Source: Patescibacteria group bacterium (GTDB taxonomy: Bacteria; Patescibacteriota; Minisyncoccia; Phycocordibacterales; UBA1550). Taken from it: a stretch of 64,000 bases of DNA. Below are positions 56,411 to 58,674 of this stretch, in pieces. The DNA is taken from positions 48,746 to 112,745 of the forward strand of contig JBBTUT010000002.1 in the NCBI GenBank assembly GCA_038063615.1, written 5' to 3'. The first letter of the stretch is position 1, and every line of letters begins with the position of its first letter. Under the pieces are notes generated by a model, which searched no databases, was not told the origin of the DNA, and saw only the letters and a list, made by a program, of their open reading frames with translations. Made by a program: the position numbers and the translations under genes.

Positions 56411-57026
56411 GTTTGAAAAATTGCATGTATGTAATATCTAAAAATTATTTGTTGAGTATTCTTTCTTTTGTTCCGTTCTTCGCCTTGCTTTGCCGTCCGT
56501 TTTAAAAAAACAGGCGATTAAGCAAGGTCTTGCGTACCGGTAACCCTTCCGGTAAGGGAGCCCCTTTTTGAGATGGGAGGGCCTTCATCTTAATTCCTTG
56601 CGGAAAAAACCGACCAATTCAGCGTATCGCAACCACGAGGGCGTACGATACAACATTATATTTTGAATTGATTCACGACCAGCTTCCGCTAGCCGTGCCT
56701 TGTTACGACTTAGTCCTTGTTACCAAGCTTACCTTAGGTCCACGCGAGGTGGAACTTCGGGTACTCTCGGCTCCCCTGACTTGACGGGCGGTGAGTACAA
56801 GACTTGAGAACGTATTCACCGCAGTATAGCTGACCTGCGATTACTAGCGATTCCAACTTCATGAGGTCGAGTTTCAGCCCTCAATCCGAACTGGGGCCAC
56901 CTTTATTAGGATTAGCTCAGGGTTACCCCGTCGCGACCCGTTGTAGTGGCCATTGTATCAAGTGTGCAGCCCAGGGTATCAAAGGGACATGCTGACCTGG
57001 CGTCATCCTCTCCTTCCTCCCCCGCC

Positions 57027-57153
57027 TTTATTCGCGAAGCGAACAAAGGCAAGTCAAAAGTTAAAAGTCACAAGTCGAAAGTAGATGCATTTTGCATTCA
57101 CTTTTTACTTTACACTTTCTACTTTCCACTTGCCTTTGCGCTTCGTGCGCAAA
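57027..57153 (-). other. 16S insertion 1: an AT-rich extended hairpin of about 116 extra nt replacing the small loop before the GGAGGAAGG region (E. coli position about 1165)
   Basis: Sense strand reads TTTGCGCACGAAGCGCAAAGGCAAGTGGAAAGTAGAAAGTGTAAAGT...ACTTTCGACTTGTGACTTTTAACTTTTGACTTGCCTTTGTTCGCTTCGCGAATAAA, full of (G/C)AAAGT repeats. No ORF. Confidence 0.6.
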
Positions 57154-58189
57154 GGCGGGGGCAGTCTCGTCTGACACATATAACAGACAACGAGGGTTGC
57201 GTTCGTTGACCCACTTAAGGGGACAGTTCAAACCACGAACTGACGACGGCCATGCATCACCTGTCCATAAGTCCTTGCGGAGTTACCGAGTTTCCTCGGT
57301 CTTTCTTATGGATTTCTAACCCTGGTGAGGTTCTTCGTTTACCATCGAATTAAGCCACCTGATCCACCGCTTGTGCAAGTCCCCGTCTATTCCTTTGAGT
57401 TTTAGCCTTGCGGCCGTACTTCCCAGGCGGATCTCTTAACGCGTTAGCTTCGCCTCTCAGAGGGTCGATACTCCGAAAAGCTAGAGATCATCGTTTAGGG
57501 CGTAGACTACTGGGGTATCTAATCCCATTCGCTACCTACGCTTTCGTGTTTCAGTGTCAGAAATGTGCCAGTTTGCTGCCTTCGCATTTGGTGTTCCCCA
57601 TGATATCAACGGATTTCACCCCTACACCATGAGTTCCGCAAACCTCTCACACCCTCTAGTCGTGCCGTTTCAGCCGCAATTCTCCGGTTAAGCCGGAGGC
57701 TTTGACGAATGACTAACACGACCACCTACACACCCTTTACGCCCAATAATTCCGGATAACGCTTGGGGTACTCGTATTACCGCTGCTGCTGGCACGAGTT
57801 TAGCAACCCCTTATTCATGAGGTACTATCAAAAATTTCTCCCTCATAAAAGATCTTTACATCCCGAAAGACTTCATCGATCACGCGGCGTCGCTCCATCA
57901 GACTTTCGTCCATTGTGGAAGATTCTCGACTGCAGCCACCCGTAGGTGTATGGTCCGTGTCTCAGTACCATCGGTGGGGGTCAGGCTCTCACCTCCCCTA
58001 AGCGTCATAGCCTTGGTAAGCCATTACCTTACCAACTAGCTGATACTCAATAAGCCAAGCCCCAAGCGATAAATCTTTACTCCGAAGAGACTATCAAGTA
58101 TTAGCCCGCCTTTCGGCGGGTTATTCCTGACTTGGGGGTTTGTACCTATTTATTACTACCTCGTTCGCAACTCCGAGCATCACGCTACG

Positions 58190-58292
58190 CGCGATACACG
58201 AGTCAAAAGTCGAAAGTCCTTAAAGTCCAAAGTAAATACGAATTGTATTCACTTTTGACTTTCGACTTTATAAACTTTTTGACTTGTGCATC
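58190..58292 (-). other. 16S insertion 2: an AT-rich hairpin expansion of helix 6 (V1 region), about 95 extra nt, with the same AAAGT/GACTTT repeat flavour
   Basis: Stem base CCGAGCATCAC ... GTGATGCTCGG. The interior reads CAAGTCAAAAAGTTTATAAAGTCGAAAGTCAAAAGTGAATACAATTCGTATTTACTTTGGACTTTAAGGACTTTCGACTTTTGACTCG. Confidence 0.6.
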
Positions 58293-58674
58293 ACACCCAA
58301 TGTGATGCTCGGCGTTCTACTTGCATGCCTTATCCACGCCGCCAGCGTTCATCCTGAGCTAGGATCAAACTCTCTTAAAAAGAGCATTTGAATTAACTCT
58401 CAAGAACGGAACAAAAGAAAAAATACTCTTTTGTATTCTTGTTATTTTACTCACAAGATCTGCCCAACTGCTAAAATCGAACAGATCCTTTTTTGGACTT
58501 GCAATCCAAACTTTAGATGTTTACATATATGCAATTGTCAAAGGTCGTTTTGCTTTCGGGCAAATACCCTGAAAGCAAAAGCGCTCATTCCTAAGCGCTT
58601 GAGCAGTATATACTTGTGTCGAAAAGAAGTCAAGCGCGAATTTTAGGCATATTTTATAGGCAAAATAAAGGTTT

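Follow-up and report, generated by a model that had tools for sequence, protein, structure and literature searches.

AAAGT-repeat hairpin insertions akin to PF05635-associated intervening sequences in the 16S rRNA gene of a Parcubacteria bacterium without a canonical anti-Shine-Dalgarno sequence

Results and discussion

We analyzed a 64-kb stretch (64,000 nucleotides, nt) of the patescibacterial contig JBBTUT010000002.1, hereafter the window, which carries a 16S ribosomal RNA (rRNA) gene with two repeat-built hairpin insertions and a 3' end lacking the anti-Shine-Dalgarno (anti-SD) motif CCUCC. The gene lies on the minus strand at 56661..58380 and is 1720 nt long with both insertions (Rfam RF00177, SSU_rRNA_bacteria, 1345 bits, model positions 1-1533, match 58380..56661). 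A sequence-only reading of the same DNA had placed it at 56665-58375 with a length of about 1.71 kb; its coordinates were right, and the strand, which it left unstated, is minus. The host is a Yonathbacteria-related member of the Parcubacteria (Patescibacteria, also Candidate Phyla Radiation, CPR) from Hainich aquifer groundwater. A tRNA-Ile(GAU) gene is located 900 nt downstream of 16S, and an Rfam scan detected no 23S gene in the 64-kb window. The ATP-grasp protein adjoining 16S is also encoded on an ENA contig (Hain_H41_01um) and in the NCBI metagenome-assembled genome (MAG) GCA_964357725.1. The ENA contig, which stems from the same aquifer, is 99.9% identical to the window across 64000..56974 and covers both insertions. 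As the insertions are present in this independent contig, they are not an assembly artefact. Two further assemblies of the region stop inside 16S or just before it. The window and the ENA contig differ at six positions, all outside both insertions and packed into 54 nt of 16S around the V6 region (57264-57317), which suggests co-existing strain variants or a local assembly mixture.

The gene and both insertions were placed by covariance alignment against the bacterial small-subunit (SSU) rRNA model. At the tip of helix 6, 120 nt are found where the model has 4, and at the tip of helix 40 (about E. coli position 1165) 131 nt where it has 3. Comparison with relatives sets the boundaries of the helix 6 insertion at 58175..58310 (minus strand, 136 nt), in place of an 8-nt loop in the relative L118 (L numbers denote the genomic loci compared). 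The helix 40 insertion occupies 57024..57156 (minus strand, 133 nt) between the two sides of the native CCCCC/GGGGG stem. Both sit at helix tips, with flanking stems that are complete and do not differ from those of insertion-free relatives. The lengths given earlier, 116 nt near position 1165 and 95 nt in helix 6, fall short, since both insertions measure about 130 nt, and the two figures were seemingly swapped between the helices.

Both insertions are palindromic, with a central repeat hairpin set between two small hairpins. In helix 6, the small hairpins CAUCACAUUGGGUGUGAUG and AUCGCGCGUAGCGUGAU form a scaffold (within 58175..58310, minus strand) around a central hairpin of 88 nt (58199..58286, minus strand) that runs from CAAGUC to GACUCG. 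In helix 40, hairpins B (GCCUUUGCGC-ACGAA-GCGCAAAGGC) and D (GCCUUUGUUCGC-UU-CGCGAAUAAAGGC), both within 57024..57156 on the minus strand, accompany a central hairpin of 83 nt (57050..57132, minus strand) that runs from CAAGUG to GACUUG and has four perfect heptads in its 5' arm. The 5' arm of each central hairpin is a series of AAAGU units followed by 2-4 nt, and the 3' arm is its complement. Blocks of 5-6 AAAGU:ACUUU base pairs alternate with small internal loops at the spacers in the predicted folds, and the hairpin loops comprise 3-5 nt with no open reading frame (ORF) inside. The folds reach -70.6 kcal/mol (z -12.4) for helix 6 and -78.4 kcal/mol (z -12.6) for helix 40, while shuffled sequences average -28.7 and -35.2 kcal/mol, respectively. 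Nine copies of AAAGTNNAAAGT are found in the 64-kb window, eight of them within the two insertions, against 0.30 expected, and none of 100 shuffles reaches nine. Minimum free energy favors a rod for the insertions, whereas the non-complementary interiors of hairpins B and D in L033, L058 and L102 favor a four-way junction; because the DNA is palindromic, covariation does not separate the two. The presence of AAAGT-repeat hairpins in helix 6 and near position 1165, as read from the sequence, is thus borne out by covariance alignment, repeat counts and folds.

The two central hairpins resemble each other in their AAAGT/ACTTT unit, polarity, size and termini (CAAGTC...GACTYG), and the insertions have a 50-nt stretch in common at 78% identity. 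Over their whole length the central hairpins are 0.72 identical, compared with a mean of 0.54 and a 95th percentile of 0.61 for a shuffled null. Higher values were obtained between genomes at the same site, namely 0.83 for the helix 6 hairpin and that of L049 and 0.77 for the helix 40 hairpin and that of L007. Since each hairpin is closer to a same-site copy elsewhere than to its neighbor at 72%, the two belong to one family without being recent copies. The earlier proposal that one kind of insertion colonized two helices therefore stands at the level of the family, as judged by unit, polarity, size and termini, and fails if recent copying is meant.

Relatives were collected by a signature-based scan of species-representative genomes, which yielded 119 loci, mostly from Parcubacteria (Paceibacteria). 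The nearest 16S genes, at 90-95% identity, belong to two Paceibacterota MAGs and to Yonathbacteria MAGs. Presence of the hairpins is patchy. L118 and L071 (about 94% 16S identity) lack AAAGT repeats; their helix 6 has 22 nt at this site and their helix 40 has 90-97 nt. The minimal helix 40 of relatives reads CCCCC-UCUC-GGGGG (L003). AAAGT-type hairpins recur at 79-85% 16S identity, at helix 6 in L049 and at helix 40 in L007, L063 and L102. Besides a helix 40 copy, L033 has another shortly after the end of 16S, in the trailer (2350-2480), and L058, likewise with a helix 40 copy, has another at the tip of helix 44 (reverse strand, about 1480-1690). Among related CPR genomes the same type of hairpin thus occupies helix 6, helix 40, helix 44 and the trailer. 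The helix 44 copy of L058 is a whole three-hairpin module that includes the helix 40 closing stem. At helix 40 itself, the flanking hairpins of L058 are swapped relative to L033, so that the module lies in the opposite orientation. The three-hairpin layout of helix 40 (B, central hairpin C, and D) is also found in L007, L033, L058, L063, L102, L111 and L115, and other lineages have the same layout with other repeat units (ATTGAC, TTCTAG, GTTTC, AATTTTA, CAAATCA). In L026 the scaffold hairpins of helix 6 are 100% identical to those of the window and the central hairpin is different; the central hairpin therefore behaves as a separate cassette.

The loop of helix 6 is a hot spot for several unrelated types of insertion. 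L032 has a 335-nt insertion there that encodes a GIY-YIG nuclease, and GIY-YIG ORFs also occur at the helix 6 tip in L008 and L078 (Pfam E = 2e-15 and 9e-17 in the region of these three loci). In L007, from a Taylorbacteria MAG, 6440-6518 match group II intron domains D1-D4 within 16S near position 1400; together with the AAAGT hairpin at helix 40 of the same gene, this match indicates that several classes of insertion coexist in one gene.

Such neighbors raise the question of degenerate self-splicing introns or remnants of homing-endonuclease introns. Group I and II introns have a catalytic core detectable by covariance models, are usually longer than 200 nt and often contain a homing-endonuclease ORF. 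CPR 16S genes frequently contain introns and endonuclease ORFs (PMC11270868), introns being the major class of CPR rRNA insertions, and the GIY-YIG ORFs at the same helix tip and the group II fragment of L007 fit this reading. In the window, however, no group I, group II or other intron family reaches the Rfam gathering score, and the insertions are simple ORF-less rods of about 130 nt that sit in loops and not in the conserved core. We regard an intron origin as scarcely credible. The earlier statement that the insertions contain neither an ORF nor an intron core agrees with this Rfam scan and with the window ORF list, in which only short spurious ORFs overlap the insertions and none is credible.

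We then looked at AAAGT hairpins outside 16S using a 25-base pattern of three AAAGT heptads, a gap and two ACTTT heptads, for which about 0-2 hits would be expected by chance (our own rough estimate). At least 120 loci in metagenome contigs matched. Only about ten sites among the matches listed lie in rRNA operons. Four of the listed matches are inside 23S, and others are found in 16S-23S spacers, between tRNAs or beside a tRNA (23S and spacer copies: L151, L179, L209, L145, L154 and L201). The remaining listed matches are intergenic, 0-30 nt from ORFs and nearly all at the 3' end of at least one gene. Host contigs among the matches listed range from 32 to 69% G+C, and the adjoining genes are ordinary and diverse. 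An Rfam scan of 18 hairpin-bearing metagenome loci returned rRNA, tRNA and one cobalamin riboswitch only. In this last case (L210), an AAAGT-heptad hairpin at 7625-7679 lies within the riboswitch (Rfam 7529-7737), apparently in a variable stem-loop.

The repeats have a fixed polarity, with an A-rich 5' arm and a U-rich 3' arm regardless of the transcribed strand. In viral contigs, AAAGT..ACTTT was found at 13 loci and the arrangement with swapped arms at none. Two control cores gave 2 hits (AAATG) and 8 hits (GAAAT), 4 of the latter in swapped orientation. AAAGT is therefore not a unique core: as the GAAAT control also yields hairpins, inverted heptamer arrays form a broader class, within which the AAAGT type is strictly polar. 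Of the strict inverted arrays of period 7 or 9 in 0.9 Mb of Parcubacteria DNA, 7 of 9 use AAAGT. Three further candidate explanations were discarded. Ordinary host intrinsic terminators would fit the position at gene 3' ends, but almost all contigs have only one hairpin, and copies occur in rRNA too. A common neighbor gene was not evident, since the 101 flanking ORFs match 152 Pfam families with PF05635 as the sole telling recurrence. Finally, no Rfam family was assigned to the hairpins at E values up to 10, generic matches being obtained only for the terminator hairpin described below.

PF05635 is a small four-helix-bundle protein also called S23p or 23S rRNA intervening-sequence protein. In L142, L165 and L220, PF05635 genes are enclosed by giant AAAGT/ACTTT stems, and L208 is similar. 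About 14 AAAGTNN units precede the gene in L142 and about 14 NNACTTT units follow it; in L189 the core is AGAAT and the stem-gene-stem layout is the same. Patescibacteria encode very many homologues of the L220 protein. A repeat-independent test was carried out on five independent Patescibacteria PF05635 gene contexts that were chosen by protein homology alone and fetched by exact protein identity. In each of them, the 60 nt upstream of the gene contain 3-5 AAAGT and the 60 nt downstream contain 4-6 ACTTT; repeats in the reverse sense are absent, and the background is 0.17 per 60 nt. The PF05635 flanks and the helix 6 hairpin of the window share strings of up to 15 nt (GACTTTAAGGACTTT), and the flank termini, (C/T)AAGTC...GACT, are the same as those of the window hairpins. 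The stems of the insertions are thus homologous to those of PF05635 elements. No PF05635 homologue is present in the window itself (phmmer). As a separate observation, Patescibacteria PF05635 genes in L269-L280 share the direction of the ordinary operon genes between which they are wedged (glycosyltransferases, conjugation-type genes, ClpB), and the AAAGT/ACTTT repeat on each side spans only 20-80 nt. The arrangement looks like a selfish cassette inserted into operons.

An origin in place, by slippage that lengthened heptamer arrays out of loops already present, would make the hairpins unrelated to each other and to PF05635, with AAAGT arising convergently. Among the long simple repeats of prokaryotes, heptanucleotide tandem repeats are the most common, and they are ascribed to polymerase slippage, according to work cited in PMC4679880. 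Hairpins of different units (ATTGAC, TTCTAG, GTTTC, AATTTTA) at the same sites in other Parcubacteria, and the 8 hits of the GAAAT core in viral contigs, could be accounted for in this way. The predominance of AAAGT among strict inverted arrays, the fixed polarity (13 versus 0 swapped) and the termini CAAGTC...GACTYG, together with 13-15-nt strings common to different lineages and PF05635 flanks, speak against it, and we consider independent slippage improbable.

Taken as a whole, the insertions are best explained as ORF-less elements of the intervening-sequence (IVS) type whose stems are kin to those bracketing PF05635 genes, a reading we hold to be probable. As in known IVSs, the insertions are long stable stem-loops at helix tips and are sporadically present among relatives (absent from L118 and L071; present in L049, L007, L063, L102, L033 and L058); tandem heptameric repeats in the stem, as reported for Coxiella, are also present. 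An S23p/PF05635 ORF, which is a feature of only a subset of IVSs, is absent from the loops. On this reading, a nested palindrome of about 130 nt lengthens each of the solvent-exposed terminal loops of helices 6 and 40, with an outer, site-specific two-hairpin scaffold and an inner part of 83-88 nt that represents an ORF-less version of the IVS stem. By analogy with characterized IVSs, we propose that the insertions would be transcribed inside pre-16S and fold into long imperfect duplexes, from which RNase III would cut them without re-ligation. The product would be a functional 16S rRNA split into fragments of roughly 75, 1025 and 365 nt, with the remaining helices keeping the three together.

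Several points weigh against this interpretation. No RNase III gene was seen among the scanned window ORFs. The hairpins are imperfect, and their internal loops could, judging from the predicted folds, alter cleavage by RNase III or prevent it. Between the window and L049 the helix 6 hairpin is 83% identical, about as much as the 16S core (83.8%), which hints either at constraint, and thus possibly at retention or function, or at recent transfer. Neither a target-site duplication nor a transposase or other mobility function was identified, and the term element follows from the distribution. Further, the hairpins are simple-sequence-like, and part of their mutual similarity could be convergent.

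In the main alternative, the insertions are retained expansion segments, long rods that project from the spur at helix 6 and from the head at helix 40 and might serve as binding platforms. Their position at helix tips, the 100% conservation of the scaffold hairpins between the window and L026, the core-like conservation of the helix 6 hairpin between distant lineages and the pattern of conserved AAAGU:ACUUU blocks with free spacers, which suggests sequence-level constraint, would all suit such a role. However, relatives at about 94% 16S identity lack the insertions, and the same hairpin, in either orientation, is found in spacers, a riboswitch loop, ordinary intergenic DNA, the gap between tRNAs and a 16S trailer. 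These sites and the occurrence of both orientations argue against a ribosome-specific role. In addition, homologous stems of characterized IVSs are excised (PMC4990558). Retention in the mature ribosome therefore appears unlikely to us, although less so than slippage or an intron origin.

An extension of the IVS reading, which we offer tentatively and as a joint proposal that is more doubtful than the reading itself, is a widespread two-tier selfish system of AAAGT-type stems and the PF05635 gene. Autonomous copies would have the stem-ORF-stem form, and ORF-less miniatures would colonize any transcribed site that tolerates a hairpin, including 16S helices 6, 40 and 44, 23S, rRNA and tRNA spacers, a cobalamin riboswitch loop and gene 3' ends. 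The Avd-like protein might recognize the repeats, with no part played by a classical transposase, and the possible outcome in this lineage would be a ribosome with its 16S in three pieces and no anti-SD. Rickettsia palindromic elements and palindromes of the miniature inverted-repeat transposable element (MITE) or repetitive extragenic palindromic (REP) kind are short palindromic DNAs that likewise spread to intergenic sites and to hairpin-tolerant RNA genes or ORFs. Palindromes of the MITE type have terminal inverted repeats with a target-site duplication, near-identical copies and a cognate transposase. The inverted termini CAAGTC...GACTYG recur in the hairpins described here, with no target duplication or transposase recognized and copies that are 46-85% identical. 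Unlike Rickettsia palindromic, MITE and REP elements, the hairpins showed neither transposase-type termini nor target duplications, their copies fall short of near-identity and each AAAGT locus has its own spacers and repeat number.

16S IVSs are known from Helicobacter, Campylobacter and Clostridium paradoxum, and insertion sequences in CPR rRNA were reportedly described by Brown et al. in 2015. The window insertions resemble ORF-less IVSs as AU-rich stem-loops of about 100-150 nt that replace a terminal loop and are present or absent among close relatives; unlike those IVSs, they occupy two helices of one 16S in a host without anti-SD. To our knowledge, neither a repeat-built stem nor a link to PF05635 has been described for ORF-less IVSs of the Salmonella, Alphaproteobacteria or Helicobacter type. 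ORF-less IVSs cleaved by RNase III are found in 23S of Salmonella and Alphaproteobacteria, as cited in PMC4990558. The 23S IVS of Coxiella burnetii (helix 45) has an S23p ORF in its loop, a 28-bp terminal stem and tandem heptameric repeats that vary in number between strains at the RNase III site, and it is excised by RNase III (PMC4990558). 23S IVSs bearing S23p/PF05635 also occur in Leptospira and Brucella (PMC4990558). Like the Coxiella IVS, the window insertions are palindromes at rRNA helix tips with a heptameric-repeat stem of inverted termini and a patchy, selfish-like distribution. In contrast to it, they are found in 16S, at two sites, without a loop ORF and with AAAGU(N2-4) instead of GACAGAT as the unit, and their excision would follow by analogy.

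According to Tsurumaki et al. (2024, PMC11270868), 48% of CPR 16S genes contain insertions of 100 bp or more. CPR rRNA genes include many short (<200 bp) ORF-less non-intron insertions, which that survey calls uncharacterized and possibly RNase III IVSs (PMC11270868). It also reports PF05635 ORFs in CPR 16S and 23S insertions and does not mention repeats or hairpins (PMC11270868). Compared with the survey, the short class is here resolved into a scaffold and an AAAGT hairpin and is tied to PF05635 stems. We did not find the link between repeat stems and PF05635, or the occurrence of the hairpins across many RNA and intergenic contexts, in the literature searched, although this search was incomplete and its outcome is weak evidence. 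The connection between short rRNA insertions and PF05635 elements through their repeat stems may represent a modest new insight.

The second trait of the gene is its 3' end. After helix 45 the RNA reads GAAUCA-AUUCAAAAUAUAAUG in the covariance alignment, where the model has GGAUCACCUCCUUU and the consensus is GGAUCA-CCUCCUUU. The tail AAUCAAUUCAAAA (56661..56673, minus strand) has AUUCA at the expected position of CCUCC (56668..56664), as the covariance alignment shows in agreement with the earlier claim that the canonical anti-SD is missing after helix 45. The same tail is present in the close relatives L026, L032, L045, L071, L086 and L118. Of 76 related 16S 3' ends, 11 read GGAUCACCUCCUUUCU and 65 lack CCUCC, with a conserved GGA-nnn-(A/U)UUCA-loop-UGAA(A) in its place. 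The UUCA-loop-UGAA mini-hairpin forms a perfect stem of at least 4 bp in 64% of cases versus 24% of shuffles, and a few compensatory variants (UCCA/UGGA, CUCA/UGAG) occur among the 16S 3' ends of L003-L121. In the window, fold and alignment delimit a tail hairpin at 56615..56670 (minus strand) that runs from CAAUUCA to UGAAUUG and encloses an inner hairpin (GUAUCG..CGAUAC); it enlarges the mini-hairpin found in other anti-SD-less Parcubacteria. Loss of the anti-SD is thus lineage-wide, and the motif is replaced by a conserved small hairpin and not merely missing. Of the three options considered earlier for the tail, that it is divergent, that an insertion interrupts it exactly at the anti-SD or that the anti-SD is supplied differently, the first holds and the other two do not, as 65 of 76 relatives are alike and no CCUCC is conserved downstream.

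A retained anti-SD, either further downstream past an insertion or supplied by CCCUCCC at 56581..56575 in the trailer, was weighed in more depth. This motif lies 90 nt downstream within a conserved 180-nt trailer that is enclosed by a processing stem, and four nearby genes have strong GGAGG sites. Yet the site reads CUCUCUC in L026, L118 and L086, it is partly paired with a covarying partner (GCCCU/GGGGC, GCUCU/GGAGC, GUUCU/GGAAC), and CCUCC occurs within 200 nt downstream in only 7 of 60 anti-SD-less loci, at scattered positions. CCCUCCC at 56581..56575 was therefore rejected as a displaced anti-SD, being neither conserved nor free of pairing and CCUCC being rare in the trailers of relatives. 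SD motifs are also not enriched at start codons. SD-like 4-mers are found 4-18 nt upstream of the start in 9% of window ORFs versus 5% of a reverse-complement control, and in 11% and 20% of cases in anti-SD-less and anti-SD-bearing relatives, respectively. GGAGG is followed by a start codon in 19 of 106 instances, against 10-22 of 90-147 for permuted motifs, which amounts to no enrichment. The GGAGG sites described as textbook examples are real in four cases (15160, 55472, 56119 and 56318), but they are few and no commoner than permuted controls. With SD motifs at background level, the apparent paradox of GGAGG sites in a host without anti-SD dissolves. Three adjacent GGAGG-led ORFs (55002-56310) moreover lack counterparts in the relatives' loci. 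All in all, retention of the anti-SD seems very improbable. The new tail AUUCAA was also considered as an alternative anti-SD; UUGAA/UGAAU is found upstream of 3-4% of starts versus 5% in the control and is not enriched, and the tail is therefore not an alternative anti-SD.

The subgroup of Parcubacteria without anti-SD also lacks ribosomal protein uL1; the ribosomal-protein loci of the present genome lie beyond the window. Tsurumaki et al. (2022, PMC9297842) found the anti-SD CCUCC(U) in just 48% of Parcubacteria. Our data show the same absence of CCUCC as that study and add its conserved UUCA-loop-UGAA replacement, to which the clade of the window adds the expanded mini-hairpin followed by a conserved structured trailer of 180 nt. 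This trailer extends from the tail to the processing stem (56481..56660, minus strand, about 180 nt). Alignment of six genomes reveals covarying stems and the invariant loops AGAUGA, CAUCUCAAAAAGG and AAGGGUUAC, and no Rfam family matches it even at E values up to 10. The trailer resembles a functional RNA domain or a small RNA released by processing. We found no conserved structured tail or trailer of this kind in the literature searched, which, given that this search was incomplete, is weak evidence.

The transcription unit has further features. A promoter-like TTGACT-17-TATACT lies upstream at 58605..58633 (minus strand; consensus scan, 10 of 12 matches, a consensus match only). The pre-16S processing stem is composed of a leader strand at 58402..58428 and a trailer strand at 56454..56480 (both minus strand), 27-nt arms that are 96% complementary and conserved in relatives, with the invariant block GAAGAACGGAACAAAAGAAAGAAUACUC in the trailer strand of the relatives' alignment. 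This 27-bp leader/trailer stem is a classical kind of RNase III substrate. At the end of the unit, an intrinsic-terminator-like hairpin, CCCGCC-AUAU-GGCGGG followed by UUUUUUGU, is read from the sequence at 56381..56404 (minus strand), and its matches to many Rfam leader and small-RNA models are confined to the terminator portions of these. The 5' leader at 58385-58399 (minus strand) directly repeats the tail motif at 56660-56674 (GAGUUAAUUCAAAUG versus GAAUCAAUUCAAAAU), which could constitute a shared processing signal at both ends of 16S. Within the gene, the site of the widely used V4 forward primer 515F (57774-57795, minus strand) reads GTGCCAGCAGCAGCGGTAATAC and departs from the Rfam consensus in having GCAGCGG instead of GCCGCGG. 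Owing to the mismatch, the organism and its relatives are probably under-amplified in amplicon surveys.

Three consecutive small genes are located between the 16S terminator and tRNA-Ile at 55002-56310 (minus strand). They encode proteins of 55, 47 (both hydrophobic) and 152 residues, and each has GGAGG 6-7 nt before its start, accounting for three of the four strong sites of the window. No homologues were found in the relatives' loci, and the genes may therefore be a recently acquired cassette from an SD-using donor. The ATP-grasp gene that precedes 16S has a MazE/PemK toxin-antitoxin pair immediately upstream (59897-60483, minus strand; annotated after the matching contig L001). Further away, a TrwB/VirD4-like type IV coupling protein adjoins a surface protein with lamin-tail and PKD domains (49723-51696 and 48179-49675, minus strand), which are typical CPR cell-surface and DNA-uptake genes.

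Conclusion

In conclusion, both headline traits of this 16S gene are of known kinds, namely IVS-type insertions in CPR rRNA and loss of the anti-SD in Parcubacteria. The tail data refine the published loss in that the motif is replaced by a conserved small hairpin. Such insertions lengthen 16S, can break assemblies at 16S and complicate phylogenetic placement. Identifying two short ORF-less insertions as PF05635-type repeat hairpins, probable as we judge it, would give an identity to a large uncharacterized class of CPR insertions and leads to a testable prediction, which is excision by RNase III and a fragmented 16S. Beyond the ribosome, the distribution of the hairpins suggests that IVS elements are a general and mostly non-ribosomal family of selfish palindromes for which rRNA is one landing site.

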